Origin: an uncultured virus (IMG/VR IMGVR_UViG_2061766007_004337)
Taxonomy: Duplodnaviria; Heunggongvirae; Uroviricota; Caudoviricetes
IMG/VR virus record: IMGVR_UViG_2061766007_004337
Strand: one strand, 5' to 3'
Length of the DNA: 59,260 bases
Made by a program: the position numbers and the translations under genes. Shown piece after piece: positions 3,841-55,595 of this stretch. The notes below the pieces were generated by a model. That model did no database searches. It was given only the letters and a program-made list of their open reading frames with translations, and had not been told where the DNA came from. The stretch's first letter is position 1, and each line of letters begins with the position of its first letter.

Positions 3841-3991
3841 GCATATTTATTCGGGAAATACGTCAGTGGTGACGTGGATAAGCCTCCGCTCTTATGGAAA
3901 TATGGTAGGGCCGTTATGGCCTTATCACGCTACAGAGGGGAGGTTTTTCCGTGAACAGTAATGCAAATACATGCCGTCGGGAGGTGAAGGA

Positions 3992-6184
3992 ATGGATGAC
4001 GTCAGGCGGGCTGCCCTGGAACGGGCGTCGCGGGCGAAGAAAGCGCCGGTAGGAACAAGCTTCGAGTCGGAACGGCAGCGCTCCAAGAACGCCTTAGTAA
4101 AGCAGATCTCTTCTCAGGACGGAAGGAACGTCCGCATGATCGCCGCCGCGACGGAAGCGCCGGAGGAGGAACGGATATTGCGTGTTGCCGCCTATTGTCG
4201 TGTCTCCACAGACGATATCGACCAGAAGCTGTCCATCCAGCTCCAGATCCAGCAGTACACTAAAAAGATCAAGGAGAACCCCAACTGGAGGTACGCCGGC
4301 TGCTACGTCGACGACGGTTTCTCCGGCACGAACACAGACCATCGGCAGGGCTTCCAGAAACTCATGAAGGACGCAATGGACGGAAAAATCGACATGATCA
4401 TTACGAAGGCCGTTTCCCGTTTTGCCCGTAACCTCATGGACTGCATCGGGTGGGTGGACGCGCTTCAGAATCACGATCCCCCGGTCAGAGTTTACTTCGA
4501 GCAGGAGAATCTGGACACGATGGCGCAGACCAGCGGCATTATCCTGTTCGTCCTGGCGATGGTCGCCCAGGAGGAAAGTCATATGAAGAGCGAGGCTATC
4601 CTTCTCTCCCTGGAGTGGCGCTTCAGCCGCGGCCGTTTCCTGACGCCGAGGCTCTTCGGCTATGACAAGATCGAGGTCCCGGACGGGTTCGGCGGCAAGA
4701 AAAAGATCCTTTCCGTCAACGAGACAGAAGCCCGAGTCGTGCGCTGGATGTATGCCACGCTCCTCAACGGCGGCTCTCCGGAAGAGATAGCTGAGGTACT
4801 GACAGAGATGTCCATTCCCACCGGCGGCAGACGTCGGGACGGGACGCTGAACACACATTGGACGGCCAGCAGCGTCATGGCGATCATGCGCAACGAAAAG
4901 CACTGCGGCGATGTTCTGGCCAGAAAGACATACACCCCCAACTACAAGGACCACAAGTCCAAGAGGAACAACGGCAAAAAGAACAAGTACTTCCAGGCCG
5001 ATCATCACGAGGCCATTGTGAGCCGGTCCATGTGGAACGCGGCGCAGAGGATCCTTAACAGCCGCAAATACGGTCACGAGGGCGCCTACCTTCCCATGCG
5101 GATCATAGACCACGGGGCGCTTGCGGGGTACATTTCCATGAATCGCACCTGGGCCGGTTTCGATTACGAAGACTACTATCGCGCCGGACAGATCGCCATG
5201 GGAATGCTTGACGGGACTTTGGAGGTCGACCTGGATTCCGAATACCTGCCGGAAGCCGGACGCCGGATCGGCGGACTGATGGATGACCACGGCATCGCCC
5301 AGATCGCCAGAGATCTTACCGCCGCCGAGCAGGAGATCAAAGACGAGCTTGAAGGAAAGGCGGAAGAAACAGCAGATATTCAGACGAAGGAGGATGCGGC
5401 CAGGGCCTTCCAGGTAGTCAGCGGAGATATGTTCTCCCGCGTTCACGAGCCGGTAGTGCGGATCACGACGAAAGGGATCACATTCAATCAGAGCTGTGTT
5501 TCAAAGCTTCCCGGAACAGAGACCGTTGAGTTTCTGTTCAATCCTGTGGAACGCATGGCGGTGGTTCGCCCCTGCAGGCCGGATCATCCCAACGCCATCC
5601 CCTGGGGTGCAAAGTACAAAAGCGCCGCTCCGCTCTGCAAGGTGATCTATGACACAATGGGCTGGGATGCTGACTATTCCTTCCGCATTCCCTGTCAGAC
5701 GCTCACCGACCCCGGTGCAGCATCGTTCGGCAGCACCGTCCTTGTCTTTGATCTGGACAACTACATGGGCCGCGCCATAAGCAAAAAAGAAGAAGTGATC
5801 GTTGCGCGCCAGGAAGCCGAGGCCGCCGCTGACCAGCGGGAAGACGCAAAAAGCTATTATTACCCTCCGGACGAAGAGGAACCGCAGGAGATCAAGGATA
5901 TGGAGGAGAAATTCCAACAGGCTGTCGAAGCCAACAAAAAGCTCTTCGGTATCCCAGTTTTCCGGCATGAGTCGGGGGCCCGCGGTCTGGGCTCAGTCGG
6001 TGACGGCGGCGAATGGGATATGATGACGGAAGCCCGTCCCCTGGACATTACCCACACAATGGATACCGGCGTCGTCGACGATCTTCTCCTGGAGATCATG
6101 GAGGATCCGCCCACTCTGCCTCAGAGTTCACCGGCCTTCTCCGCTGACGCCATCGTCGTTGAAAGCACCGGAGAGGAGGTCTGA
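3992..6184 (+). CDS. Large serine recombinase 3 with extra C-terminal domain
   Basis: AAYCRVST, SRFARN, recombinase domain; no Zn ribbon; ATG at 3992 after GGAGGTGA. Confidence 0.88.
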   Translation: MDDVRRAALERASRAKKAPVGTSFESERQRSKNALVKQISSQDGRNVRMIAAATEAPEEERILRVAAYCRVSTDDIDQKLSIQLQIQQYTKKIKENPNWRYAGCYVDDGFSGTNTDHRQGFQKLMKDAMDGKIDMIITKAVSRFARNLMDCIGWVDALQNHDPPVRVYFEQENLDTMAQTSGIILFVLAMVAQEESHMKSEAILLSLEWRFSRGRFLTPRLFGYDKIEVPDGFGGKKKILSVNETEARVVRWMYATLLNGGSPEEIAEVLTEMSIPTGGRRRDGTLNTHWTASSVMAIMRNEKHCGDVLARKTYTPNYKDHKSKRNNGKKNKYFQADHHEAIVSRSMWNAAQRILNSRKYGHEGAYLPMRIIDHGALAGYISMNRTWAGFDYEDYYRAGQIAMGMLDGTLEVDLDSEYLPEAGRRIGGLMDDHGIAQIARDLTAAEQEIKDELEGKAEETADIQTKEDAARAFQVVSGDMFSRVHEPVVRITTKGITFNQSCVSKLPGTETVEFLFNPVERMAVVRPCRPDHPNAIPWGAKYKSAAPLCKVIYDTMGWDADYSFRIPCQTLTDPGAASFGSTVLVFDLDNYMGRAISKKEEVIVARQEAEAAADQREDAKSYYYPPDEEEPQEIKDMEEKFQQAVEANKKLFGIPVFRHESGARGLGSVGDGGEWDMMTEARPLDITHTMDTGVVDDLLLEIMEDPPTLPQSSPAFSADAIVVESTGEEV

Positions 6185-8145: not shown

Positions 8146-8163
8146 GACGCAAGGAGGTTGCAA

Positions 8164-10698
8164 ATGGATCGGGAAAAGCTATTCAAGCACCTGGAACGGC
8201 GCTATACCTCAAAACGCGAAATGATCTCCCGCATCCCTCTGGGAGTACAGCCGGACGCGATGTGGCAGGAGCTGCTGAATCAGCGACGGTCCAGGAGCAC
8301 CGTGATCCCGCTGTACAACGCCAAGGGTCAGCCCTTCTGGTATGTCACGACGGAAAAGATGGTCGCGGCCAGTGAGAAAATACTTGAGGCGCTGTTCGAG
8401 AATGAAGCTGTATTTGATCCTTACACAGAAACGCTCCCCGTCTCCACGCTGGAGGAGGTGTTTTACACAAGCTATGTGGAGGGAGCGCAGATCAGTATCC
8501 AGGCGGCGATGGAATTTCTGTCCAGCGATCTGCCGCCGCGGGATATTGAGGAGCAGATGATCACCAACAACCGCATCGCAGGGAACTACGCCGCCGGCAA
8601 TCTCTATCGTCCCATCGACAGTCAGTTTTTGAGGGAGCTTGCCTATCTGCTCACGGACGGCATGGATCAGGGCGGACAGGATTTCCGGGCGACGGACGAA
8701 GTGGATTTCAGCGCGGCAGGCGGCGAGACATTTGAGTTTCCCTCCTGCGCGGTGATCCCTGATCGCATGGGCGAACTGACCGCCTTCCTGGAGGCGCCCA
8801 ACATTCACCCTCTGATCAAGGCGGCTGTGGCGCAGGCGTATCTGATGATCCTGCGTCCGTTCCCGGAGGGAAATGACCGGCTGGGCAGGATGGTCTCAAG
8901 CATCATCCTGCTTCGCGCCGGATACACCTTCTTCAGCGAGGTCAGCCTGTCCGCCCTGATCGCAAGAAAGAGCTACAGCTATTATGAGGCCGTGCTCAAT
9001 ATCCTGCGGGAAGAGAACGGCGGCGATATGACCTACTTTATCGAGTACTATCTTGGACTGCTCTCGCGGGCGGTGGATGAGCGGAGGCTGCGGCAAAACC
9101 GCAGGGAGGAGCAGGATCGCCAGGCGGAAAGAGAGCTTGCCCGCACACCGCTGAGCACGGTTTCCGCACCCGTGACGATACCGCCGCCCACAGAGACCAT
9201 TCACGAGCCGGAGTCAGCGGAGCAGATGATCCAAGACCCTAATCAGGCGGAGGAAGGAGGTGAACTCTTAGAGGGCTTTATCCCGGTTTCGACGATGGAG
9301 CTGGAGCCCTGGGACGAGGACGCGATTTATACGGAGGACGCGATCCGGGTCGCCAGAGTGAAGGACGAGCTCTACCGAAAAGCGGCTGAAGGCGGGCCCC
9401 TGACAAGAGCCTGCGCCAAGCTGTTCCTGGGCTATATTGAAAAGGGCGTCAGCACCTTCACTATGGAAGATATCGCTGAAGGCTGCTCCGTGACCGCCAC
9501 CCAGGCAGGTAATCTGATAACCCACATGAAAGGCTTCGGTTTGATTGAAAGCAGCGATCAGCGGAGAAACCGGTGCATGCTTTACCAGATTGGAACCGGA
9601 TTGCCGCCGCTGCAGCCGGAGGATTACGCGCCGGAATTGCTGGAGGCGGTAAAGGAGCTGCGCTTCTCCTCCAGATCCACCAGGGACAGGCGCGCCGGCG
9701 AGATCATCATGTCCTGCCTCCCCAAAGGGCTCGTCACGGCGGAAGACTATGCTTCGATCGGAGATGCAGCCAAACTGACAGGAGATCTGGCGCTGCCGGA
9801 ACATATGGGCATCGTGGAAAAGCTCTCCGCCGGGGTATACCGGATCAGCAGGCAGATACTCAGTCAGGGCAAGCCGCTTACGCCAGGGCAGAAAAACACT
9901 CTGACGGCGCTGTATCAGAGCTTTGGCAAGGAACCTTTTACGCGGGAGGAGGCAGCAGAATCGCTGAAGCAGTCCAAGTCGAGTACGTGCACGATCCTGC
10001 ATCAATTCACCGTGCTTCGCCTTCTGGAATGCAAGGAGGAAGTCTTCTTCATTTATCGGTTCCTCGTTGATCCGGACACGCAGCCCGAACTGTTCAACGA
10101 AGGCGCGGCTGAGAGCGTCCCCTTAGAAAAAGTGGTTATTCCGGAGACAGTCCCCACGCCGGATGAGGACGATTCCCCGGCATACAGCACACCGGAGCAG
10201 AGTGCGTACTCGGAGGCTGTATATCATCTGCTGGAGACCCTGGCTTCTTCCGCGACGTCGATCAGAGACAGAAGACTTGCAGAGGCTCTTCGGCGCTGCC
10301 TGGACAAGGGGACGCTCCTGCGGAGCGACTACGAAGACTGGGGACACAGCGTGAATATGTGGCTGTCGGACACGACCCTGGCAGAGCAGCTGGGTCTGAT
10401 CACAAAGATGCCGAACGGCGATTATTCGCTCAACCGGGAACTGAGCTCTAAGTTCCCGGAGCTAAAGCCCCATCAGAAAAGAACGATCACGGCCATATAC
10501 GAAGCTTTCGGCGACCAGGAATTCTCGCAGGAGATGATCGTAGCAACGCTGAATTACTCGGTCTCCTACACCTACGCTTCTCTTCACAAACTGACACTGC
10601 TTCGCATCCTGGAGCAGAGAACGACCGAAGGAGTGAGCCAGTATCAGCTGATGGTCAATCCCGAAGATCACCCCGAATGCTTTGAAATTGCCGCATAA
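8164..10698 (+). CDS. Fic-domain protein with degenerate motif and duplicated C-terminal winged-helix-like regions
   Basis: TSYVEG inhibitory motif, HPLIKAAVAQAY, RPFPEGNDRLGR; AGGAGG RBS. Confidence 0.8.
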   Translation: MDREKLFKHLERRYTSKREMISRIPLGVQPDAMWQELLNQRRSRSTVIPLYNAKGQPFWYVTTEKMVAASEKILEALFENEAVFDPYTETLPVSTLEEVFYTSYVEGAQISIQAAMEFLSSDLPPRDIEEQMITNNRIAGNYAAGNLYRPIDSQFLRELAYLLTDGMDQGGQDFRATDEVDFSAAGGETFEFPSCAVIPDRMGELTAFLEAPNIHPLIKAAVAQAYLMILRPFPEGNDRLGRMVSSIILLRAGYTFFSEVSLSALIARKSYSYYEAVLNILREENGGDMTYFIEYYLGLLSRAVDERRLRQNRREEQDRQAERELARTPLSTVSAPVTIPPPTETIHEPESAEQMIQDPNQAEEGGELLEGFIPVSTMELEPWDEDAIYTEDAIRVARVKDELYRKAAEGGPLTRACAKLFLGYIEKGVSTFTMEDIAEGCSVTATQAGNLITHMKGFGLIESSDQRRNRCMLYQIGTGLPPLQPEDYAPELLEAVKELRFSSRSTRDRRAGEIIMSCLPKGLVTAEDYASIGDAAKLTGDLALPEHMGIVEKLSAGVYRISRQILSQGKPLTPGQKNTLTALYQSFGKEPFTREEAAESLKQSKSSTCTILHQFTVLRLLECKEEVFFIYRFLVDPDTQPELFNEGAAESVPLEKVVIPETVPTPDEDDSPAYSTPEQSAYSEAVYHLLETLASSATSIRDRRLAEALRRCLDKGTLLRSDYEDWGHSVNMWLSDTTLAEQLGLITKMPNGDYSLNRELSSKFPELKPHQKRTITAIYEAFGDQEFSQEMIVATLNYSVSYTYASLHKLTLLRILEQRTTEGVSQYQLMVNPEDHPECFEIAA

Positions 10699-25521: not shown

Positions 25522-26046
25522 TTAAAGCACTCTCTCGAACAGCAGAAATTTTCTTGGAACCCCGATATCTTCATAGCATATTTCCACGGTGTCAATGTAT
25601 TTGAAGCCGTGATGCTGATACATTCTGTGTGGAACGGTATTCCCCTCAATACAATCCAAACGAACAGCCCTTTGATTCTTTTCCTTGGCGACATGGATCG
25701 CATGCTCGACAAGCTGGGACGCGTATCCCTTTCCGCCAAATCCAGGGTGCACCCGAAGAGCATGCAGAACGGATGCCTGCTCACTCGGAACAGTTATCTG
25801 CCAACTGACTGTGCTATATGCTGGGTCTGCATCGTTATTCAGAATATAAGCAGCCATGATTTGACCGCCTTCTTCGCCAACAAACAACTCAGAATTATCA
25901 ATAGCTGAAACGACCATGTCGATTGGTGGAAATCCACCTTTGTTTCCCTCCGGGAGGAAGTCCTGCTTTCCCAACTCAGCGCACATCATGGCATAGAAGT
26001 CCATTATTTCACGCAAGTCTCCCGCTTTTGCTGGACGAATTATCAT
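25522..26046 (-). CDS. GNAT-family N-acetyltransferase (moron)
   Basis: LHALRVHPGFGGKGYASQL, N...MYQHHGF; visibly more AT-rich. Confidence 0.88.
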   Translation of the reverse strand: MIIRPAKAGDLREIMDFYAMMCAELGKQDFLPEGNKGGFPPIDMVVSAIDNSELFVGEEGGQIMAAYILNNDADPAYSTVSWQITVPSEQASVLHALRVHPGFGGKGYASQLVEHAIHVAKEKNQRAVRLDCIEGNTVPHRMYQHHGFKYIDTVEICYEDIGVPRKFLLFERVL

Positions 26047-33668: not shown

Positions 33669-34406
33669 TTATGGTTTGATAAGATTCAGCCGCTCCATCA
33701 GTTCGTTAACGGAACGGCCCGGCTTTTCTTCCGGCGCAGTCGGTTCCTTTGGGGGCGCCGTTTTTGCGGTAAGCTTGTTCAAAAGAGCGGCTTCCGCCGC
33801 CTTGCCGGAAAACGCGTAAGCCGGTACCTCCGCCGTGAGCTTTTCATCGGTGAGGATGTCATCGGCAAAGCCAAGCTCAATGGCCTTCTTCGCGTTCATC
33901 CAGGTTTCGCTGTCCATCAGGTGCGACAGCTTCGCGCGGGTGAGACTGGTTTTGATTTCATAGGCGTTGATGATGCTTTCCTTGACTTCCGCCAGCATGT
34001 CAATTGCCTTCTGCATATCCTCATGATCGCCGAAGGCGGCTGTCATGGGATTGTGGATCATCATGAGAGCCGTAGGCGCCATAAGGACTCTGGTTCCGGC
34101 CATGGCAATGACCGATGCCGCGGAAGCCGCGATGCCGTCGATCTTTACCGTGACGTTTCCCTTGTAGTCCATGAGCATGGAATAGATCTGGCTTGCCGCG
34201 ACGCAGTCGCCGCCCGGGCTGTTGATCCAGACGACAACATCGCCGTCCCCGGCAAAAAGCTCATCGCGGAACATCTGCGGTGTGACGTCATCGTCAAACC
34301 AGCTTTCCTCCGCGATGGTTCCGTACAGCTCAAGGACTCTTTCCTCTGCGGGATCCGCGTCCGCCTGGTTAATCCAGTTCCAGAACTTCCTGTTCTGAGG
34401 TTTCAT
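33669..34406 (-). CDS. Clp-type prohead protease
   Basis: INSPGG, AASAASVIA, MMIHNP, ETWM. Confidence 0.93.
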   Translation of the reverse strand: MKPQNRKFWNWINQADADPAEERVLELYGTIAEESWFDDDVTPQMFRDELFAGDGDVVVWINSPGGDCVAASQIYSMLMDYKGNVTVKIDGIAASAASVIAMAGTRVLMAPTALMMIHNPMTAAFGDHEDMQKAIDMLAEVKESIINAYEIKTSLTRAKLSHLMDSETWMNAKKAIELGFADDILTDEKLTAEVPAYAFSGKAAEAALLNKLTAKTAPPKEPTAPEEKPGRSVNELMERLNLIKP

Positions 34407-35667
34407 CGGATTCGCTTGCCTCCTTGGTCGTAGAATTGTTATTTGCAAAAGCGCCCGCGCTGACGAGCGGGAGCATATTGCCGTTGATGAGATACAGGTC
34501 TCCGCCTTCCTCAGCCGGAATACGGTCAAGATTCTCCAGTTCTCGGATATCATTGGCGGACATCCAGCCGTTCTGCCTTGCTGTCGCATAGCCGGCCATC
34601 CTGCTCTGATAGTCTCCGCGGAGGAGACCCTCGACATTGAATTTCACAAAATACCGCGTTTTCTCCTCCGGCGTCAGCAGAGAGCGCTGAATGGACTGCT
34701 CCCAGCGCACGACCCAGGGATCAAGCGTGTATTTCACGAACTCAAGAGACTGCTGCTCAATATTTGAAAAGCTCGACTTTTCCAAATCCCCGACCATATG
34801 CGGCGGGACGCGGAAAATTCGAGCTATCTCATTGATCTGAAATTTTCTGGTTTCCAGGAACTGCGCCTGCTCCGGGGAGATGGAGATGGGCGTGTATTTC
34901 ATGCCCTCCTCCAGCACGGCGATTTTGCCGCTGTTCGCGCTCCCGCCGAACTGAGACTGCCACGCCTCCCGAACGCGGGCGGGGTCTTTTATCGTCCCCG
35001 GATGCTCCAGAACGCCTGAGGGAGCCGCACCGTTTGCAAAGAACTTAGCGCCGTACTCCTCAGTCGCTATTGCAAGCCCGATCGCGTTCTTGGCCATTGC
35101 GATCGGGCTGTAGCCGACAAGACCGTCAAAGCCCAGGCCGGGGATGTGCAGAACGTCCTGCGGCCGGAGAAGAACCCGACCGACGTCACCGGTCTTGGCT
35201 TCGTCCGTTGAGCGCGTATAGATGTAATAGAGCTGACCCTTGTCATCGCGGTCAACTTCCATCTTGTTGGGCATCAGCGGGTACAGGGCTATGACTTCGC
35301 CCTTGCCGTTCCGGATGACCTGCGCGTAGGCGTTGCCCCACAGGAGCAGATGCGTCATCAGCGTCTCCCGGAAAACGAACGAGCTCATCTCCGGGTTGGG
35401 CTCATCATGGAGCAGCAGATACAGCGGATGATCAATAGCCTTTTCTTTGCCGCCGCTCTCTGTGTAACGGTAAAGATGCACAGGGAGACCGGCAACAGCC
35501 TCCGCGAGAATGCGGACGCAGGAATAAACCGCCGTCATCTGCATGGAGGACCGCTCAGTTACAGATTTCCCGGCGGTGGTGCTGCCCATGAAAAAGCTGT
35601 AGCTGCTGCCCGCTGTGCTGTTTTGGGGCTTGTCCCGAGACCGGAACAGCCCGGAAAAAATGCTCAT
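34369..35667 (-). CDS. Portal protein (HK97 family)
   Basis: AVYSCV...PNPEM...GYSPI...EIARIFRVPP; ATG at 35667 after AAGGAGG. Confidence 0.96.
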   Translation of the reverse strand: MSIFSGLFRSRDKPQNSTAGSSYSFFMGSTTAGKSVTERSSMQMTAVYSCVRILAEAVAGLPVHLYRYTESGGKEKAIDHPLYLLLHDEPNPEMSSFVFRETLMTHLLLWGNAYAQVIRNGKGEVIALYPLMPNKMEVDRDDKGQLYYIYTRSTDEAKTGDVGRVLLRPQDVLHIPGLGFDGLVGYSPIAMAKNAIGLAIATEEYGAKFFANGAAPSGVLEHPGTIKDPARVREAWQSQFGGSANSGKIAVLEEGMKYTPISISPEQAQFLETRKFQINEIARIFRVPPHMVGDLEKSSFSNIEQQSLEFVKYTLDPWVVRWEQSIQRSLLTPEEKTRYFVKFNVEGLLRGDYQSRMAGYATARQNGWMSANDIRELENLDRIPAEEGGDLYLINGNMLPLVSAGAFANNNSTTKEASESDETSEQEVLELD

Positions 35668-35677
35668 TTCTGCCTCC

Positions 35678-35705
35678 TTGATTTTGCGGTTATATGTGGT
35701 ATACT
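35678..35705 (+). promoter_or_regulatory. Sigma-A promoter driving the riboswitch
   Basis: TTGATT-16 nt-TATACT with extended -10 TGTG. Confidence 0.7.
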
Positions 35706-35710
35706 GAGAG

Positions 35711-35796
35711 CACCTATAAAGAGTGCGCGAGAGACAAGCTCGTTGACCGCACGACAACCTGCCGAAAGGTAAGGTGCCAAAGCTTGAACGATGGGG
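35711..35796 (+). ncRNA. SAM-I-type (S-box; P4-less) riboswitch aptamer
   Basis: CCTAT-AAAGAG, P2 GTGCG/CGCAC with GAG..TGA kink-turn, loop CAAG pairing with CTTG, GACAACC..GGTGCC P3, AA, 3' GATGGG. Confidence 0.78.
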
Positions 35797-35811
35797 ATCA
35801 AAAGAATGCGT

Positions 35812-35842
35812 CAGCCCCATCGGACGATGGGGTTGTTTTTAT
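35812..35842 (+). terminator. Riboswitch expression-platform terminator
   Basis: CAGCCCCATCG-GA-CGATGGGGTTG then TTTTT; 5' arm is also complementary to the aptamer 3' strand CGATGGGG. Confidence 0.8.
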
Positions 35843-35882
35843 GCCTCTTTATGGGAATTATTCGTAAAGGGGTATTATTGTT

Positions 35883-36203
35883 ATGAGTCAATCGAATGAA
35901 GTCCTTATGTGGCATGTCGCTCTTCGTCCGGATGGGGGCCTGCAACCAATCGTCGCGGCATCAATCCCGTTTGATGTTGAATTGCTAAAGGCACTTCTTC
36001 AAACAGACCGTCCGGGCGCAAAAGTCGTTTCACTTGATGCGGATCATCATTACATGTTCGCATATGACAACAACCTGCAAAGGCCATACCCGAGTGTTAT
36101 GATCTTCAGATATGAGGAAACAGACGCTGGCAACATCGTCCGGGATTTGCGGCAAGAGGATATGCGCGCCGTCCAGTATGCCTATAACTGTCTGCTGAAT
36201 TAA
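35883..36203 (+). CDS. Riboswitch-controlled hypothetical protein (106 aa)
   Basis: AAAGGGG RBS; fills the gap between portal and terL on the opposite strand. Confidence 0.75.
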   Translation: MSQSNEVLMWHVALRPDGGLQPIVAASIPFDVELLKALLQTDRPGAKVVSLDADHHYMFAYDNNLQRPYPSVMIFRYEETDAGNIVRDLRQEDMRAVQYAYNCLLN

Positions 36204-37805
36204 TCACAGGAAGAGCAATCCCCGGTTATCGTAGACTGAGGCGCCGGTATCATTGCCACAGCGAATGGCGCGGTCGAGACCCATGATGGTTGCGACCGCG
36301 CCGTCTATTTTTTCTGTGGATTTTTCCTTGTCCGCCTTGATGTTGCCCGCCGGGTCTGTCCGAATGTAGATGTTGTCCATCATCCAGCGAAGGACCGGGT
36401 GTCCGCCGTGGGCGATCCTCTGCTCCAGCACGAGCTTCATCAGCTCTTTCGTCGGCGGGCTCATGTCCTTGAAGCCCTGGCCGAAGGGCACGACGGAAAA
36501 GCCCATGCCTTCAAGATCCTGCACCATCTGTGTCGCTCCCCAGCGGTCAAAGGCGATTTCACGGATATTGAAACGCTCACCGAGCCGCTCGATGAACTTT
36601 TCAATAAAGCCATAATGGATCACGTTGCCTTCCGTTGTTTGAAGGAAGCCCTGCCGCTCCCAGACGTCGTACGGAACATGGTCGCGCCGGACACGAAGCT
36701 CCATGTTTTCCTCCGGGATCCAGAAGTACGGAAGCACAGCATACTTATCGTCTTCATCCGCGGGTGGGAAGACCAGCACGAACGCCGTGATATCCGTGGT
36801 GGAGGAGAGGTCGAGCCCGCCATAGCACACCCGGCCCTCCAGCTCGTCCTCATCGACCGGGAAGGCGCACTGGTCCCATTTCTCCATCGGCATCCAGCGC
36901 ACTGACTGCTTGACCCACTGATTCAGCCTGAGCTGCCGGAAGGCGTTCTCCTCGGCGGGATTCTGCCTGGCGGATTCGCACGCCGCCTTGACCTTGTCGA
37001 TGCCGACCGTAATGCCGAGGGACGGATTGGCCTTTTTCCAGACCTTCGGGTCCGTCCAGTCATCGCTCTCGTCGGCACCGAAAATCACTGGGTAAAAGGT
37101 CGGATCGACCTTCCTGCCTTCCAGTATGTCCTTCGCCTTCTGGTGTGTTTCATAGCAGATCGACCTGGTGTCTGTTCCCGCTGTCGTGATCAGAAAATAC
37201 AACGGCTGCATACGGGCGTCGCCGGAGCCCTTTGTCATAACGTCAAAAAGCTTCCGGTTCGGCTGAGTATGCAGCTCGTCGAACACCACGCCATGGATGT
37301 TGAAGCCGTGCTTGGAGTAGGCTTCCGCCGACAGCACCTGGTAAAAGCTGTTTGTGGGTGTATATACAATGCGCTTTGTGGCCGTAAGGATCTTTACGCG
37401 CCGACTCAGAGCGGGAGACATACGGACCATATCCGCCGCGACGTCAAAGACAATGCCGGCCTGCTGACGGTCGGCGGCGCAGCCGTAGACCTCGGCACGC
37501 TCCTCACCGTCAGCGCAGGTGAGCAGAAGCGCGACGGCGGCGGCAAGCTCGGATTTGCCCATCTTCTTGGGGATCTCAACATATGCCGTGTTGAACTGGC
37601 GGTAACCGTTAGGCTTCAGAATACCGAAAATGTCCCGTATGATCTGCTCCTGCCAGTCGATCAGTTCAAAAGGCTTTCCCGCCCAGGTGCCCTTGGTGTG
37701 GCAGAGGTTTTGGATGAAAGCAACGGCATAGTCCGCCGCCTCTTTGTCGTAATATGAGGCTTTGGCCTTGAAGGCAGTGGGTTTGTATCTTTTCAGTTTT
37801 CGCAT
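36204..37805 (-). CDS. terL: Terminase large subunit
   Basis: PKKMGKS Walker A, VVFDELH, GGLDLSSTTD, EKIDGAVA. Confidence 0.97.
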   Translation of the reverse strand: MRKLKRYKPTAFKAKASYYDKEAADYAVAFIQNLCHTKGTWAGKPFELIDWQEQIIRDIFGILKPNGYRQFNTAYVEIPKKMGKSELAAAVALLLTCADGEERAEVYGCAADRQQAGIVFDVAADMVRMSPALSRRVKILTATKRIVYTPTNSFYQVLSAEAYSKHGFNIHGVVFDELHTQPNRKLFDVMTKGSGDARMQPLYFLITTAGTDTRSICYETHQKAKDILEGRKVDPTFYPVIFGADESDDWTDPKVWKKANPSLGITVGIDKVKAACESARQNPAEENAFRQLRLNQWVKQSVRWMPMEKWDQCAFPVDEDELEGRVCYGGLDLSSTTDITAFVLVFPPADEDDKYAVLPYFWIPEENMELRVRRDHVPYDVWERQGFLQTTEGNVIHYGFIEKFIERLGERFNIREIAFDRWGATQMVQDLEGMGFSVVPFGQGFKDMSPPTKELMKLVLEQRIAHGGHPVLRWMMDNIYIRTDPAGNIKADKEKSTEKIDGAVATIMGLDRAIRCGNDTGASVYDNRGLLFL

Positions 37806-39906: not shown

Positions 39907-40779
39907 GCCGGAAGGCTGTGTCTCCGTCAAGGTTGCGGGTCAGAAAATCCCGCGCCGTGGCGAACTCCTCGCCGATGAAGCCGAGCCGGAGGAGCCAGGT
40001 GCGCATCGCGTACTTGGGGTTCTCGTTCTGCTGAGGCTTGGGGCTGGCGGTCCGCACTTCCTTCGCCATCTCGCTGAGCGCGAGGCAAAGTTGAATGTAG
40101 CTCTTCAGCTGTCCGGCGTGGATGCCGTTCTGCCTGCCGCCNNNNNNNNNNNNNNNNNNNNNNNNNNNNNNNNNNNNNNNNNNNNNNNNNNNNNGTTGGC
40201 GTCGTTGCCGGTGTACCAGACGTCCGCGAGGGCGGCCATCGTCCGGGGCTTTCTGCGGTTCAGCGCCGCGAGGAAGGCGGGGTCGACCGTTCTGCAGTAG
40301 CGGTCCATGCGGCCGCGGTCGAGGCGAAGGGCGTCGGCCAGAAGGCTTTCGTGGCTTGCCATGATGTTGGCGAGGTTCCGAAGCGTCTGCGGCGTGTGGC
40401 CCTGGGCTCCGATGTGGATGTGAACTCCGCACCCGCGGGTGGCGTCGCTCTTCGCGCCCGCCTTGCGCAGCCGGCGGCAAAGCTCCTGCAGGAGTTCAAT
40501 GTCGCTGTAGCGGAGGATCGGGGTGACCATCTCGCACTTTTCGCTGTCCGGACCCTGGATGCTGACGTCCCGCTGGAATTTCCACTCGCGGCCCGCGCTG
40601 TCCCAGGCGCTCCAGGTGTAGTAGCCGTTGCGGTGGGCGGTGTCCTCGTATCTGCCGGTTCCGAAGAACTCGGCGGCGAGCTGGGCGGCCGCCTTGCGGG
40701 TGATGCTGTTCATCTCGACCTCGACGCCGATTGTCTGGCTCTTGAGGTTCTCGATCTGCTTTTCGGTCTTGTTCGTCAT
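39907..40779 (-). CDS. Amidoligase (COOH-NH2 ligase type 2), interrupted by assembly gaps
   Basis: IGVEVEM, DVSI, EMVTPIL, CGVHIHIG; the missing middle appears at 43515-43625. Confidence 0.85.
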
Positions 40780-40919
40780 TGCTGTATCCTCCGTTTTCCG
40801 GGGCTGTCCGCTCCCTTTTGGTAGTGTATTAATCACTCTAAACGGAGGATATAGCAAGACAATTCGGAGCCATATACTGCACAAAGATACAGCAGAAAAG
40901 TTGTGTATTTATGCGGCTT

Positions 40920-41921: not shown

Positions 41922-43899
41922 TCAGGAGGAAAACTGGTCATAGTACGCTATGCCTGCCAGCACGAACCATACGCACGGAAGCGCCACGCCGTTGCCCCAG
42001 AGGCGGTAGGCGGCGCTGTCCAAGTACGGAGCCTGCAGCCATTTGACGATCTGGCTGCGGGTCTTCGGCTTCTTAGCCCCAGAGATGACTTCGCGGTAGG
42101 TCTCGAACACATCGGTCCAGAAGGCAATGTCCTCTTCAGTCGGCTCCGCGGTTTCAAGCCCGTCGCACCACCAGTCCGGGAAGCCTTGGAGCCTCGCGCA
42201 TTCGGTGGGGGTAAGGCGTCGCACGATGTAATAGGGCTCGGCGCTCACGACGGGAGGCTCCTTGTACTCGGAAGCCACCAGCGTGTCCACGGCGGGCTCA
42301 TCGGTGAACTTCGTCACGTGGGAGTTCTTCGAGGCGTGGAATACCGGGGCGGCGACACCCTGCTGGTCAGCCGTGTTCAGCGTGAACGCAACATCCTCAC
42401 CGACGCCGCTGCCCTGGGGACCGTTTTTCTCGTTCCGGCCGATCATATTGCCCTGCAAAGAATAGGCTTTTTCCACCACACAGACCCCGCCCTGGTTGCA
42501 GCCGGGGTGCCCGCCGCTCTGATCGAGGGTGCGGGAAGTCTCAGCCACATAAATGCCGGAGTGAGGATTGTCTGAGAGCATAGAATGGCTCTGGTTGGAG
42601 CAGATTCCGAAAACGGTAGGCGCGAACACAGTCTGATCGTTGTTTGTGGCGAGAGTGGCGGATCTCTCTTCCTGCCACAAGGCGCCTTTGCCGCCGCCTT
42701 CCTTGCCGCAGCGGATCTTCAGCGTGTATGCCAGGGGGCCGGCGGGAGTCATGACGAGCGGGACGTTGTTGCCGCCGGTGCCCATGCGCTGCGTCAGCGT
42801 CTGCACCAGGTTGTTCCCGTCGATGCGGATGCGGCAGTCTACGGGGTGGTGTTCCAGGGCAATCGCCGCGGGAACGACCCCGGCACGGAGCGTGGGAGCG
42901 GTCTCCTCCTCGTAGCCGATGGAACGGCTCTTCGCGGAATGCTCCGTGCAGAAGCCCGCCGCGATCACCGGAGGATGGCCGTGGGTCTCGGCGCGGAGTG
43001 TGCCGGAAACATCCTCCGACACATCCATACGGTCGCCGCCCTGGTCGTTCAGGCAGACGCTGCCTGCCGCTCCAACGCCGCTCTCAGGATCACGGGCAGC
43101 TCTTTGCCACGCTTCGAAGCCCTCCGGAGAATACCCAGACAGGCCTTCGGAGTTAAACAGTATGTCTCCGGCACGTTCTCCTGCAAAATCTGCGACAAGA
43201 AAGATCCTTGCTCTGCGCTGGGGTACACCCCAGAATTGAGCGTCGAGAAGGCGGTAAGCCACGCTCCATCCGTCTCCCAGATACACGTCGGCGTAAGGCC
43301 ATCCGTTTTTACCAGGTGCAGGCACCTCGGCGGACGGCTCTTTGACGCCGATGACCGCCTCAAGGACTGCCTTGAAGTCGGCCCCTCCGTTTGAACTGAA
43401 GGCGCCGGGGACGTTCTCCCAGACGCAGTATCTCGGATATTCTCCATTGGTTTTTTCCCTCATTTCTCTGATGATGCGGATCGCCTGATGGAACAGGCCG
43501 GAGCNNNNNNNNNNCTCCGGGGCGTCGAACTGGAAAAGGCGGAACTCAACGGTGCCCTTGGTGAAGGTGGCGTGGAGGTTGAGCATGTGGTAGCGGCTGT
43601 CGTTGTAATGCTGGTTTCTGCCGTANNNNNNNNNNGTCAAGTCCGGCTCTGCGTCCCGCGACCGACATATCCTGACACGGACTGCCGAAGGTGATGATAT
43701 CCACGGGCGGCAGGTCGGCGCCGGAGAGCGCGGACACATCCCCGTAATGAAGCATTTCAGGCAGCCGCTTCGTTGTCACGCGCACGGCGAAGGGCTCCAC
43801 CTCGGAAGCCCAGACAGGCTCGATCCCGGAGAGGATGCCTGCCAAAGGAAAACCCCCGGAGCCGTCAAACAGGCTGCCGAGGGTGAGACGTTTATTCAT
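41922..43899 (-). CDS. DNA (cytosine-5) methyltransferase (foreign fragment scaffolded at 43505-43635)
   Basis: LFDGSGG, GSPCQ, WENV, PQRRARIF, RRLTPTECARLQGFPD, GNGV. Confidence 0.88.
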
Positions 43900-45406
43900 G
43901 TTCTACCTCTTTCACAAGGTCTGAGTAGTTGATCCGCTGCCCGTTCCGTTCTACAAACACCTGTTCTGCGTTTCCAAAGTCTTCGACATATCTGCGGAGG
44001 ATGACGGAGGCATACTTGGGATCGAGTTCCATCATGCGGCAGATCCGCCCGGTCTGTTCACAGGCCATCATGGTCGAGCCGGAGCCGCCGAAAGTGTCAA
44101 TGACAACGCTGTTCTCCTGCGAGGAGTTCTTTATGGGATAGGCCAGCAGGTCGAGCGGCTTGCTCGTCGGATGGTTTTCGTTCCGCTTGGGCTTGGCGTA
44201 GTTCCAGATCGTGGTCTGCTTGCGGTCGGAATACCAGGGGTGCTTCCCGTTTTGAAGGAAGCCGTACAGGATAGGCTCGTGCTNNNNNNNNNNCTGCTTG
44301 CGGTCGGAGTACCATGGATGCTTCCCGTTCTGAAGGAAGCCGTACAGGATCGGCTCGTGCTGCCACTGGTAATCCGAGCGGCCGAGCACCAGGGAGTCCT
44401 TCACCCAGATACAGCATCCGGCGAGGTGGAAGCCTGCGTCGATAAACGCCCGGCGGAAGTTCAGCCCTTCGGTGTCGGCGTGGAATACGTAGGCCGCGCC
44501 GCCTTTCTCGAGCACATCCGCCATGTTCTTGAACGCGGAGAGCAGGAAGGTGTAGAACTCTTCGTTCNNNNNNNNNNGAGAGTCCTTCACCCAGATACAG
44601 CACCCGGCAAGATGGAAGCCGGCGTCGGAAAATGCCCTGCGGAAGTTCAGCCCTTCGGTATCGGCGTGGAATACATAGGCCGCGCCGCCCTTTTCGAGCA
44701 CGCCCGCCATGTTCTTGAACGCGGAGAGCAGGAAGGTGTAGAACTCTTCGTTCTTGATGCTGTCGTTCTGAATCGTCAGGCCGCTGGAGCTTTTGAAAGA
44801 TACACCGTAGGGCGGGTCCGTCACGATCAGGTTCGCGCGGGTGCCGTCCATGAGCTTCTGTACATCTTCCGCTTTGGTGGCGTCGCCGCACATGAGCCTG
44901 TGCCGGCCGACCGTCCACACGTCTCCGGGCTCCACAAACGTAGCCTTCTCCAGCGCGGCGGAGAGGTCATAGCCGTCATCTTTAACGTCGGCGTTTTTAT
45001 CCTCGAAAAGGTCAGCCAGCTCATTCTCGTCAAACCCGGTAAGGAGCGGGTCAAAATCCTCCGCCCGCAGCGACTCGATCTCCACTCGCAGGAGCTCCTC
45101 GTCCCAGCCGGCATCCATGGCCATGCGGTTGTCCGCAATGATGTACGCTTTTTTCTGGACCTCGGTCAGATGATCCGCAAACACGCAGGGAACTTCAGTC
45201 ATGCCTTCCTCTTTGGCGGCAAGCAAACGACCGTGACCGGCGATCACGCCATAGTCACGGTCGATTATGATTGGATTGATAAACCCGAACTCCCGGAGCG
45301 AAGACCTGAGCTTCAAAATCTGTTCCGGGGAGTGGGTGCGCGCGTTGTTGACATAGGGAACAAGCTTCCCGATAGGGACAAGCTGCATTTCAGTCGTGGT
45401 AGTCAC
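43892..45406 (-). CDS. ParB-like N-terminus + N6/N4 DNA methyltransferase (internal duplications at gaps)
   Basis: NNARTH, IAGHGR, TDPPY, HPTSKP, DTFGGSG; GTG overlaps the MetK stop. Confidence 0.88.
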   Translation of the reverse strand: MTTTTEMQLVPIGKLVPYVNNARTHSPEQILKLRSSLREFGFINPIIIDRDYGVIAGHGRLLAAKEEGMTEVPCVFADHLTEVQKKAYIIADNRMAMDAGWDEELLRVEIESLRAEDFDPLLTGFDENELADLFEDKNADVKDDGYDLSAALEKATFVEPGDVWTVGRHRLMCGDATKAEDVQKLMDGTRANLIVTDPPYGVSFKSSSGLTIQNDSIKNEEFYTFLLSAFKNMAGVLEKGGAAYVFHADTEGLNFRRAFSDAGFHLAGCCIWVKDSXXXXNEEFYTFLLSAFKNMADVLEKGGAAYVFHADTEGLNFRRAFIDAGFHLAGCCIWVKDSLVLGRSDYQWQHEPILYGFLQNGKHPWYSDRKQXXXXHEPILYGFLQNGKHPWYSDRKQTTIWNYAKPKRNENHPTSKPLDLLAYPIKNSSQENSVVIDTFGGSGSTMMACEQTGRICRMMELDPKYASVILRRYVEDFGNAEQVFVERNGQRINYSDLVKEVEHE

Positions 45407-46191
45407 GGTCGGATCAGCCCCCATTCGGCAAACTTCTCAAACCCGCCGAGCGACTCGATATACTCCCGGGCGATTTTTACGATCTCCGAGTACGGACGCC
45501 CGTCAATGCTGTCGTCGCCGATAGCGCAGCAGAGCTCCACAGGCCTGCCGGTCTTCTGTGCCTTGAGCCAGGCATAGATGTTGACGCTGACGTCGGCCTT
45601 GCTCAGGTCCTTGCCGTGCAGTCCGCCGCCGGTCACGCTGTCGCCCATATCGGAGCCGAGCTTACGGTTCGTGGCCCCGGTATCCACATCGGTGCCGCCG
45701 GTCCAGTCGCCGAGCGGATTGATCTCCGCGTCTGGGAAAAGACGGTCCAGCACACGGCTGGAGGCATTGCTTTGGCAGATAATGAGCCGGTCATCATCCA
45801 GAATGTACTTTCCGTCATATGGAAAAAGCTCATAGATGAAGCCAGCGGCGTCGGTCAGTTCATCCTGCTCGGCGGTGACGGGGACGCCCTTGAAAATACC
45901 GTTATCTCCACAGCGGATCTTGTCCTGCTGATTCTTGGCGAGGTGGCTGTCCTGGGGCACACGGGTATAGTGTACATTCAGCTTTCCGGCGATGCGGTTT
46001 ACCGCTCTCAGGATAAAGCTGGCCGGGATCCGCACGGAAGACTCGGCTATGATGTAGCAGTTGCCATGGCCGATCAGCACCTCAACCGCGATCTTCGGAT
46101 CATCCTCGAAGGCATACGCCAGGTCTACGATCGCGCCGGCGATACGGTCGGCTATTTTGTCCGGGTGGGACGGGTTCACTTTTTCGTACAT
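45403..46191 (-). CDS. metK: Compact S-adenosylmethionine synthetase-like protein
   Basis: EKVNPSHPDKIAD, CGDNG, DGK, INPLG.WTGG..DTGATNRK, GGGLHGKDLSKAD. Confidence 0.85.
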   Translation of the reverse strand: MYEKVNPSHPDKIADRIAGAIVDLAYAFEDDPKIAVEVLIGHGNCYIIAESSVRIPASFILRAVNRIAGKLNVHYTRVPQDSHLAKNQQDKIRCGDNGIFKGVPVTAEQDELTDAAGFIYELFPYDGKYILDDDRLIICQSNASSRVLDRLFPDAEINPLGDWTGGTDVDTGATNRKLGSDMGDSVTGGGLHGKDLSKADVSVNIYAWLKAQKTGRPVELCCAIGDDSIDGRPYSEIVKIAREYIESLGGFEKFAEWGLIRP

Positions 46192-46195
46192 TCTT

Positions 46196-46747
46196 TCATC
46201 CTTTCCTGGCGCGGAGAAGCCGCTCCATAACATCGTCCTGGGGAGTGGGGCCGCTCCATTCAACAGAGCAGTTCTCCTTCACTATCTGGTAGATCTGGTA
46301 CCAGAGCTGATTACACTGTTTGGCGTAGTCCCGGGAGATGGCCACATACGGCGACGTCATCGCGCCTCCGGTCGTGGGATGCTTCGCCAGGAAGCCGAAC
46401 TCGCTGATGGCGGTTTCGCACTGGATCCATCGGGCGCCCGCCATGGCGTACTGCTCGATAAGCAGAGGCCCGACGTACTGGTCGCACTTCCTCGCACGGA
46501 GCCAGTTCCATACTTCCTCGTACAGTTCTTCGGCGCAGAAGTCCCTGCCGTCTTTCTGCCTGGCCTTGAGATACTCCTTCGCCGGCGGCATGTCCGCACC
46601 GAGGAGGCCCTCAGCCGCATCGCCGAAGTCTATGACCGTCAGCTCGTGCCCTCCGGGGTTGCCGGAAACAACGCGCTCGGTCAGCGCCTTCTTTTTTGGC
46701 CCTGTGCCGGGCCTCGCGCCGCCGCGCATCGTGCCGTCCTTGGCCAT
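46196..46747 (-). CDS. terS: Terminase small subunit (P27-like)
   Basis: RGGARPGTG, HPTTG...SPYV, DDVMERLL. Confidence 0.85.
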   Translation of the reverse strand: MAKDGTMRGGARPGTGPKKKALTERVVSGNPGGHELTVIDFGDAAEGLLGADMPPAKEYLKARQKDGRDFCAEELYEEVWNWLRARKCDQYVGPLLIEQYAMAGARWIQCETAISEFGFLAKHPTTGGAMTSPYVAISRDYAKQCNQLWYQIYQIVKENCSVEWSGPTPQDDVMERLLRARKG

Positions 46748-47908: not shown

Positions 47909-47941
47909 CTCCTCAGTCAACAGAGAAAGGGTGCAGTGCAT

Positions 47942-48220
47942 TTGATCAAATCATTTTCAAATAAAGAAACAGCATCCCTTTTCAACACCGGTCATTCCAG
48001 GATTTTCAGCAATATAGAGCGTATTGCCCTGCGCAAGCTGGACATGATAAATGCCGCGGTCAATGTAGAAACGCTCAAAGTCCCGCCCGGAAACAGGCTG
48101 GAAGCTCTTAAAGGGAACCGCCAGGGTCAATACAGCATAAGAATAAATGACCAGTGGCGCATATGCTTTAAGTGGGAAGGCCGCGATGCATATGATGTTG
48201 AAATCGTCGATTATCACTGA
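47942..48220 (+). CDS. higB: HigB (RelE/ParE-family) toxin
   Basis: PPGNRLEALKG.R.GQYSIRINDQWRICF...VEIVDYH. Confidence 0.93.
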   Translation: MIKSFSNKETASLFNTGHSRIFSNIERIALRKLDMINAAVNVETLKVPPGNRLEALKGNRQGQYSIRINDQWRICFKWEGRDAYDVEIVDYH

Positions 48221-48231
48221 TTGGAGGAGAA

Positions 48232-48531
48232 ATGATGAGAACTGAAAACTTGATTCATCCCGGAGAGATCCTTCGTGAGGAGTTTATGGTTCCCATGGGG
48301 ATTTCCCAGAATAAGCTGGCTATTGAACTTCGCATTCCCGTAACCAGGGTGGGCGAGATCGTTAACGAGCGCCGCGGAATCTCTGCGGATACAGCCGTGC
48401 GCCTCGGCATTTTCTTCGGAACCGGTCCGGAATTTTGGACGAACCTCCAGTCGAACTATGACCTCGGTATGGCAATGAAAAAGAATAAGGCGGAGTTTTC
48501 AACGATTCGCGCCTTTGCCCCAGCAATCTGA
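48232..48531 (+). CDS. higA: HigA antitoxin
   Basis: HPGEILREEF...ISADTAVRL..FFGT..EFW.NLQ..YDL. Confidence 0.93.
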   Translation: MMRTENLIHPGEILREEFMVPMGISQNKLAIELRIPVTRVGEIVNERRGISADTAVRLGIFFGTGPEFWTNLQSNYDLGMAMKKNKAEFSTIRAFAPAI

Positions 48532-55072: not shown

Positions 55073-55420
55073 NNNNNNNNNNGGCCCTTGCAGTAAGAAA
55101 CCATTGCGTCTGCGATCTGGCGGAGATACGGATCAAGAGCGCTGCCGATGTCGTTTACGGCAAAATCGCCGTTGCTGATGCCGACGCTGCCAAGGTCCAG
55201 TTTCAGCGGGATCATCTGCGCCTTGATCGGGCAGAGATAACCGTCCCGGATTGCGGAAGCCATGCTGTATTCGTAAGCCTTGCTGTCGAAGTACTCGCCG
55301 AGGTTCTTCTGATCTCCGCGATCGGGGGTGGCGGTAACGCCGAGGACATTGGCGCCGTCGAAATGATTGAGCACCTTCTGATAGCTGTCCGAAAGGCAGT
55401 GGTGCGCTTCNNNNNNNNNN

Positions 55421-55595
55421 AGGTGATCTCCCCGGCAACCGTCACATGATTATCTTTGATCAGCGTCTCGACAGCCACGCGGCTGTGCCTGTCATGCGAC
55501 AGGCAGTCAGACAGGATCGCGTCGGATATTTGGTCACAAATCTTGTCGGGATGCCCTGCGGACACCTGTTCGCTGGAAAACAGCATGTGTTTCAC
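55421..55595 (-). CDS. metK: N-terminal fragment of a second, canonical-type SAM synthetase
   Basis: [23 protein letters not shown]...RVAVE...GEIT. Confidence 0.75.

Follow-up and report, generated by a model that had tools for sequence, protein, structure and literature searches.

Canonical S-adenosylmethionine (SAM) riboswitches of the SAM-I, or S-box, type (Rfam RF00162), as in the leaders of B. subtilis and Thermoanaerobacter, combine helices P1 to P3, a pseudoknot, and a conserved core with a terminator/antiterminator platform of the OFF type. We analyzed a leader that shares these elements in a 59,260-nucleotide stretch of DNA from an uncultured virus of the Caudoviricetes (IMG/VR record IMGVR_UViG_2061766007_004337), hereafter called the window. 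The leader is part of a cassette at positions 35678-36203 on the + strand, between the terL and portal genes, both of which are on the - strand, and it precedes an open reading frame (ORF) of 106 amino acids, ORF106. The cassette differs from the canonical switches in that it lacks P4, lies in a prophage, and carries a gene without a known link to sulfur metabolism. It also has an extra hairpin at the ribosome-binding site (RBS) that is coupled to the 5' strand of the aptamer, a feature seen in only 2 of 27 ordinary leaders. We consider it very probable that the cassette is a mobile SAM-OFF unit with a second lock and with antisense read-through into terL.

The P4-less SAM-I aptamers of Actinomycetota share with this leader the deletion of P4 and the retention of the rest of the aptamer; unlike them, the copies found here are in Clostridia and their phages, and the two are likened by description, not by sequence. 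Excerpts of the report on the P4-less aptamers present them as known natural variation, functional with lower affinity (PMC12714719). Because such natural aptamers are already known, we treat the missing P4 as a feature of a variant and not as the mark of a new class. The ubiG-mccBA antisense SAM riboswitch of C. acetobutylicum (described in parts of PMC2258182 and PMC9943018) is likewise a SAM-I OFF switch that sits on the opposite strand at the 3' end of another gene, so that low SAM would yield an antisense RNA. In contrast to that switch, the transcript here first encodes a conserved protein with a predicted translational lock, and the opposed gene is a phage terminase (a methyltransferase in relatives). 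Phage-borne metabolite sensors that govern a phage gene have been described as well, namely, the glutamine riboswitch of Melnitz-like marine phages (excerpted from PMC9004378) and the c-di-GMP riboswitches of C. difficile prophages (excerpted from PMC11477304), which differ from the present switch in ligand class. Riboswitches on phage genomes are described as rare in the available text of PMC9004378, and our literature search returned no report of a phage-borne SAM riboswitch. P4-less SAM-I aptamers and antisense-placed riboswitches are thus known kinds; carriage on phages, a coupled RBS lock, and an orphan protein as cargo were not found in the literature searched.

The riboswitch leader and its predicted logic

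The cassette and the two genes that flank it have the following features:

34369-35667, - strand: portal gene, divergent from the cassette; the gene start is 11 nt from the -35 box of the cassette
35678-35705, + strand: promoter, with -35 TTGATT at 35678-35683, a 16-nt spacer, TG at 35697-98, and -10 TATACT at 35700-35705
35711-35797, + strand: SAM-I (S-box) aptamer, P4-less, located with the Rfam RF00162 covariance model
35789-35822, + strand: antiterminator, in which the P1 3' strand CGAUGGGG (35789-96) pairs with the terminator 5' arm CCCCAUCG (35815-22) over 8 pairs
35812-35840, + strand: intrinsic terminator, with a 10-pair stem (35812-35835), a GGAC loop, and a U5 tract; -16.6 kcal/mol
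35841-35875, + strand: second hairpin, whose 3' arm holds the RBS AAAGGGG (35866-72); -15.1 kcal/mol
35883-36203, + strand: ORF106 (P0001), 106 aa, of an unnamed family
36204-37805, - strand: terL, convergent with ORF106; the stop codons are adjacent

The elements of the extended -10 promoter all lie where a sequence-only reading of this locus had placed them, and the predicted transcription start coincides with the first bases of the aptamer. A stronger promoter variant (TTGACT-16-TG-TATAAT, 11/12) occupies the equivalent place in the homologous locus L019. The same reading had described a self-contained + strand unit between portal and terL, and both its coordinates and its status as a phage moron were confirmed: the unit has its own promoter and terminator, sits between conserved phage genes, and is missing from relatives.

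The RF00162 covariance model matched the aptamer with 50.9 bits, above its gathering score of 44.4 (E of 9e-09 for the whole 59-kb window), as the earlier reading would have it. RF00162 was the only Rfam family above threshold within the window; a sister family of the same clan gave an overlapping match with a lower score, which the search tool dropped. Model positions 1 to 108 were covered in full except for 17 P4 positions, which were deleted. The S-box layout that had been proposed (P1, AAGAG, P2, pseudoknot, and P3) is reproduced by the model alignment. In this alignment, P1 pairs 35713-17 with 35791-95 (CCUAU/AUGGG), the AAGAG core is present, and P3 (CAACC.../GGUG) has a GAAA cap and a mismatch in one first-P3 pair. 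The pseudoknot between the P2 loop and J3/4 joins CAAG (35735-38) to CUUG (35783-86) through 4 pairs and is 100% paired. The P2 internal-loop sequences CGA and GUUGAC align to the kink-turn loop of the model, which is a statement about alignment and not about geometry. The claim that P4 is missing stands in that the P4 positions are deleted, but as described in part of PMC12714719 this is known natural SAM-I variation; the leader has no four-way junction with P4 and is classed here as a P4-less variant rather than as a canonical member.

Covariation was examined in 14 distinct leaders (L007, L011, L013, L017-L019, and L023 were excluded as identical or nearly identical to others). Across this set, 89.9% of the cells were paired, compared to 36-46% after the partners were slid by 1-3 columns. 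The terminator stem accounts for three of the nine pairs that had changed on both sides and P2a for two; P1, P2b, P3, and the pseudoknot contribute one each. One pseudoknot pair changed from A-U to G-C in 7 of the 14 leaders, and core positions were invariant across clades. Judged from its sequence and those of its relatives, the RNA is a genuine SAM-I-type riboswitch under selection for the S-box structure; it would bind SAM and is predicted to reduce expression when SAM is high.

The earlier reading had also noted a terminator whose 5' arm competes for the P1 3' strand. Both pairings were found (-16.6 kcal/mol for the terminator and -12.1 kcal/mol for the antiterminator as a hairpin), and complementarity of the CGAUGGGG/CCCCAUCG type is kept in all aligned leaders. 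Alternative pairing of the terminator 5' arm with the P1 3' strand is the arrangement of an OFF (transcription-terminating) platform, and it supports the view of a SAM-I-type riboswitch with OFF (terminator) logic. At high SAM, the P4-less aptamer would lock P1 during transcription, the terminator at 35812-35840 would form, and transcription would stop after ~130 nt. At low SAM, the P1 3' strand would bind the terminator 5' arm to give the antiterminator.

Transcripts that pass the terminator contain the second hairpin. The 5' arm of this hairpin, together with its loop (CUCUUUAUGGG, 35845-55), can base pair with the 5' strand of the aptamer (CCUAUAAAGAG, 35713-23), a region that consists of the P1 5' strand and the conserved AAAGAG. 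The duplex of these two segments in the window has an energy of -15.2 kcal/mol, which was reached by 1 of 500 shuffles. On a MAFFT alignment the RBS hairpin was 59.8% paired with its columns out of register, and per-sequence folding was used instead; by this measure, an RBS hairpin lies between the terminator and the start codon in 13 of the 14 leaders, the exception being L014. We then compared the energies of the duplexes between the 5' strand and the anti-Shine-Dalgarno (anti-SD) arm against dinucleotide shuffles, with the following numbers of leaders beating their shuffles:

ORF106 leaders: 13 of 14 (0-8 of 500 shuffles reach the observed energy)
Other leaders of the same riboswitch subtype: 5 of 5
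Distinct viral leaders: 16 of 19
Ordinary SAM-I leaders: 2 of 27

The pairing tracks the changes in P1 (CCUAU:AUGGG, ACCAU:AUGGU, and CUCAU:AUGAG). In some leaders, L002 among them, the second hairpin is also terminator-like. As far as leader sequences can tell, coupling of an RBS hairpin to the 5' strand of the aptamer is peculiar to this riboswitch subtype, and the hairpin would act as a second lock, on translation. At high SAM, P1 would retain the 5' strand, and transcripts that had escaped termination would keep the RBS buried in the hairpin at 35841-35875. At low SAM, the freed P1 5' strand together with AAAGAG would capture the anti-SD arm CUCUUUAUGGG, the RBS would open, and ORF106 would be made.

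Homologous loci, viral relatives, and the proteins behind the switch

We examined 26 loci with homologues of ORF106 (L001 and L013 are one contig). In 19 of them, a threshold-level SAM riboswitch lies ~80-100 nt upstream on the same strand, and this linkage persists down to 33-38% protein identity. Among the remaining loci, L014 has a weak SAM hit (37.3 bits, sub-threshold), L010 and L027 are cut off, and L003, L004, L012, and L025 have no riboswitch at an E value of <=1. The sequence-only reading had made its case depend on homologues keeping the RNA, and it came through this comparison, with 19 loci at the Rfam threshold for it and the four loci without the RNA on the other side. Because of the loci without a riboswitch, the ORF106 protein is not obligatorily SAM-gated.

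The riboswitch-ORF106 pair occupies the terL/portal gap in the window and in L002, L005, L017, L018, and L019, and L020 has terL downstream. Other copies are chromosomal and lie beside hydrolases, permeases, LysR regulators, SUKH-1, ADP-ribosylglycohydrolase, or a recombinase. The description of the unit as a prophage moron therefore fits the copies in the terL/portal gap, but the pair is not phage specific. Its hosts are Clostridia (Oscillospiraceae, Mogibacterium, and similar metagenome-assembled genomes) and their phages.

Four host genomes (G001-G004) had two RF00162 hits each. In G002, G003, and G004, one hit is a canonical four-way riboswitch before metK and the second is P4-less. This second hit is upstream of an ORF106 homologue in G003 and G004; in G002 it is not, and the ORF106 homologue there has no riboswitch. 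Since G003 and G004 have only these two hits, before metK and before the ORF106 homologue, the ORF106 family and metK make up their whole detectable S-box regulon. ORF106 would, on the proposed mechanism, belong to the low-SAM (S-box) response. The two hits in G001 precede a prophage ORF106 homologue and an FGase-family gene. Further, in host genomes an FGase-family (PF05013) hydrolase follows the P4-less leader, second lock included, at L035:1564-2415, L041:1679-2425, L042:1664-2410, and L043 from ~1674, where the family assignment comes from Pfam in L035 only and was made by eye in L041-L043. This hydrolase may be a methionine-salvage amidohydrolase.

Two more loci extend the list of cargo. 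At L047:1658-2349, a riboswitch of the subtype (90.8 bits) stands before two small paralogous proteins of 128 and 104 aa, neither of which had a Pfam or PHROGs hit. At L039:1499-1770, a complete P4-less leader (CUCAU/AUGAG) is followed by an ORF of ~30-39 aa and then by a DUF4236-SHOCT membrane protein; the cargo of this riboswitch may have decayed.

With an aptamer-core pattern we found 34 IMG/VR contigs, all of which (34/34) are full matches to a model of the aptamer plus terminator, with 106-143 bits. Many of these contigs are near-duplicates, and they contain 19 distinct leaders. ORF106 is present in 1 of the 34, which is the window's own phage. In 29 of the 34, the switch is followed by a protein of ~100 aa that we call family B (for instance, L087:2670-2963; the loci are within L086-L119). 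Family B is under purifying selection and had no Pfam or PHROGs hit, and its AlphaFold2 model (pLDDT 92.7) was without a match in fold searches. A relationship between family B and ORF106 was considered and rejected (hhalign probability of 3.5%, with the secondary-structure elements in a different order). Across the loci, the switch always precedes small uncharacterized proteins or a hydrolase.

The switch unit and a C5 DNA methyltransferase gene converge in 26 of the 34 viral contigs (25 with family B, plus L111), and the stops often overlap. The C5 cytosine DNA methyltransferase genes that lie tail-to-tail with the switch include L087:2956-4938 (- strand), L097:43-2067, L111:3128-4096, and others. 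Eleven of the contigs with a convergent methyltransferase have terL within 2.5 kb, 78-88% identical to terL of the window. The tail-to-tail arrangement suggests SAM-gated antisense control of a SAM-consuming enzyme, and it lends indirect support to the idea, raised in the sequence-only reading, of a metabolic checkpoint.

The terL-portal DNA of the window is 74-80% identical to that of 'Ca. Heliusvirales' gut phages. The terL-portal junction was compared in four phages (L028-L031; PV036425.1, PV036423.1, PV036413.1, and PV036438.1): PV036438.1 has no insert there, and the other three carry a PAPS reductase, two small same-strand genes, or three opposite-strand genes. Because the inserts at the junction vary or are absent, we regard it as an insertion hot spot. 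The cassette would be a mobile, self-contained SAM-OFF unit that entered a Heliusvirales-type gut prophage in tail-to-tail orientation with terL. DNA near-identical to positions 35500-36500 of the window (94-99% of sampled words) occurs in 14 public runs, many of them pig gut metagenomes, and the phage is therefore widespread. The phage lineage is described as widespread in guts in excerpts of PMC11283538, a paper from which the word "riboswitch" is absent.

The ORF106 family comprises 16 clusters with 52-98% identity in a set of 5.8 billion proteins, and an exhaustive profile search gave 40 family representatives at an E value of <=0.001. Some members are fused to membrane segments, a zinc ribbon, SHOCT, or unknown N-terminal domains. 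The fused forms examined gave no clue to function, and the N-terminal domain of P0028, used as a query, returned only 4 near-identical proteins. Third-codon-position changes dominate between the homologues (between L015 and L016, the differences by codon position are 9/5/36). By this pattern of substitution, ORF106 is a real coding gene under purifying selection. The statement that the ORF has no recognizable Met/Cys function agrees with the searches: ORF106 and its homologues had no family match in Pfam, PHROGs, NCBIfam, or PADLOC (for PADLOC, ORF106 and six homologues were run), and tblastn of ORF106 against 50,697 phage records gave no match. No toxin-like or enzymatic motif was seen in ORF106.

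ORF106 is predicted to be a cytoplasmic alpha+beta protein with six strands and two helices (AlphaFold2 pLDDT 91.9). The structure search that had been suggested gave DUF3846 phage proteins as the best BFVD fold matches to this model (E of 1.7e-4; TM 0.45-0.67), and DUF3846 proteins were also the best leads in the ESM Atlas, but nothing meaningful was found in the PDB, where Foldseek returned nothing at an E value of <=0.001 and the best VIA-align match had a Z of 4.7 (Mrs2), none reaching a Z of 5. A Cas9 row in the PDB sequence profile search (E of 0.44) was set aside as chance level. The DUF3846 (PF12957) proteins of phages and plasmids may be like ORF106 in fold and are unlike it in sequence. 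None of 36 ORF106-family members matched PF12957 even at an E value of <=10, hhalign of the two families gave a probability of 0.1%, and sequence membership was rejected. We know of no function for DUF3846. ORF106 is plausibly a small protein with a DUF3846-like fold, and tentatively, at somewhat less than an even chance, it may act on SAM homeostasis or SAM-dependent methylation as a small binding protein.

Predicted antisense read-through and alternative readings

The ORF106 stop abuts or overlaps the terL stop in the window, L002, L019, and L020. No convincing + strand terminator was found after ORF106 or inside terL in the window, L002, or L019; in the window, the + strand terminator-like sites inside terL number 4, against 3.0 +/- 1.8 in shuffles, and are weak and at chance level. 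The switch thus has the placement of an antisense riboswitch, facing another gene from its 3' side without a convincing terminator in between. Because the stops are adjacent and no convincing terminator intervenes, low-SAM read-through would run antisense into terL. The low-SAM transcript would continue into terL as antisense RNA, which is probably made, and any effect of it on terL is a prediction.

One alternative places the emphasis on this RNA: the cassette would chiefly be an antisense-acting riboswitch whose SAM-gated transcript silences the convergent gene at low SAM (terL here and the C5 DNA methyltransferase in relatives), with the small ORF as secondary cargo. This is compatible with the explanation we prefer and differs from it in emphasis. 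It draws on the abutting or overlapping stops, on the lack of a convincing + strand terminator inside terL, and on the convergence with the methyltransferase in 26 of 34 viral contigs, and precedents are available in the C. acetobutylicum antisense SAM-I riboswitch (part of PMC2258182) and in 292 predicted cases (part of PMC9943018). However, the ORF106 pair is also chromosomal where the downstream gene is co-directional or unrelated, ORF106 and family B are both under purifying selection, and the RBS lock makes sense only if translation matters. Moreover, contigs from RNA libraries, low in depth and strand-blind, do not show an antisense transcript, and we judge a chiefly antisense role to be somewhat unlikely. 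The sequence-only reading had also raised a defense tripwire, in which ORF106 would be an anti-phage or superinfection-exclusion effector that comes on when an invader depletes SAM, for instance, with a SAM lyase. OFF logic does imply expression at low SAM, the prophage moron location would suit such a role, and some homologues lie beside SUKH-1, ADP-ribosylglycohydrolase, NACHT, HIRAN, or AAA genes, typical of variable conflict-type regions. Yet the absence of PADLOC hits for ORF106 and six homologues and of toxin-like or enzymatic motifs argues otherwise, as do the homologues among ordinary metabolic genes and the FGase-family hydrolase that the same subtype drives in hosts, which looks metabolic rather than defensive. 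We regard the tripwire as improbable.

Two other alternatives concern the RNA itself. A four-way SAM-I fold can also be drawn for the leader, with the antiterminator helix serving as P4 and the terminator 3' arm as the P1 3' strand. SAM would then stabilize a terminator-excluding fold, and the logic would be inverted or two-stage: the switch would turn expression on, or it would act only after transcription, as a sensor on the full-length mRNA. In L005, this alignment scores 56.9 bits, compared to 56.7 for the P4-less one, and in the window the four-way drawing has -48.3 kcal/mol, compared to -51.0 for the OFF drawing. However, Rfam aligns the window best without P4 (87-90 nt), as it does 14 of the 19 threshold-level loci; a four-way best alignment is limited to L005, L017, L018, and L019, which share one leader, and to the sub-threshold L014. 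The first P1 3' strand also emerges well before the second during transcription, which favors the three-way fold, and a P1 3' repeat is inherent in any terminator/antiterminator design. Inverted logic via the four-way fold is unlikely, and we would give this alternative as a whole very little chance. That the aptamer is a relic or has changed its ligand, so that the leader is a constitutive attenuator without SAM sensing, would agree with the absence of P4, the modest score, and the mismatch in one first-P3 pair. It is hard to square with a core that is invariant across clades, with helices kept through compensatory changes, with an architecture retained in full in 34 viral contigs and several chromosomal copies, and with the reported function of P4-less SAM-I aptamers (part of PMC12714719), and we find it scarcely credible.

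It is important to note that several observations weigh against the mobile SAM-OFF cassette as we describe it. Four homologous loci (L003, L004, L012, and L025) are without a riboswitch, and the sub-threshold L014 is also without the second-lock element. The Rfam score is only 6.5 bits over the threshold, and the absence of P4 is reported to lower SAM affinity (part of PMC12714719). The leaders come from few clades only, so shared descent inflates the covariation counts, and the near-equal score of the four-way drawing in L005 leaves room for other logic. In contigs from four RNA-library runs, low coverage is shared by ORF106, terL, and portal, and the contigs are uninformative on start, end, strand, and regulation. 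The RNA-library contigs also contain many related aptamers from other loci.

A broader version of the mobile-cassette explanation would have one P4-less aptamer tie the development of abundant Heliusvirales-type gut phages to host SAM through three layers, namely, co-transcriptional termination, the RBS lock, and SAM-gated antisense RNA, with ORF106 and family B as a new class of low-SAM effectors; in this breadth we find it distinctly doubtful. If it were true, the antisense target would be a DNA methyltransferase in most relatives and the packaging terminase here, and ORF106 and family B might, for instance, slow methylation or packaging or else safeguard the supply of SAM. With a SAM sensor directed against genes for methylation or packaging, the host's one-carbon status would be linked to phage gene expression in a way open to direct test. 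The low-SAM response would also gain two orphan protein families, and the leader would provide a compact, two-checkpoint design.

Other genes of the window

The phage encodes SAM-related genes outside the cassette, namely, a C5 methyltransferase, a ParB-N6/N4 methyltransferase, and two proteins with a SAM-synthetase N-terminal domain, and it is in this sense invested in SAM. These genes and a neighboring amidoligase gene are located as follows:

~39908-40794, - strand: amidoligase gene
41922-43739, - strand: C5 DNA methyltransferase with a short amidoligase-like piece
43892-45424, - strand: ParB_N plus N6/N4 DNA methyltransferase
45403-46263, - strand: SAM synthetase N-terminal domain (PF00438) only, 286 aa, phrog_1569
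55212-55595, - strand: SAM synthetase N-terminal domain (PF00438) only, 127 aa, phrog_1569

In the lineage as a whole, methyltransferase genes are reported in 67% and SAM-synthetase genes in 58.9% of genomes (excerpted from PMC11283538). The set of methyltransferase and amidoligase genes in the window matches the set beside the riboswitch in L087-type contigs. The 286-aa and 127-aa proteins fall far below the cut-off of TIGR01034, and phrog_1569 is of unknown function; the two may be truncated or divergent MetK-like proteins. A similar PF00438-type gene adjoins terS in L005.

Three further observations concern mobile or accessory genes. A HigB-like toxin ORF (47936-48220, + strand) has an adjacent ORF of 99 aa (48232-48531, + strand), and the two are likely a toxin-antitoxin pair in the prophage. 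Genes for two large serine recombinases and for a Fic-domain protein of 846 aa (PADLOC SoFic, E of 8e-29) are found at the left end of the window (1872-3506, 3971-6184, and 8158-10698) and may mark a separate mobile or defense element. Lastly, a GNAT acetyltransferase gene (25522-26046, - strand) lies within the tail module, with the tape-measure region on one side and the Prophage_tail gene on the other, and may be another moron.

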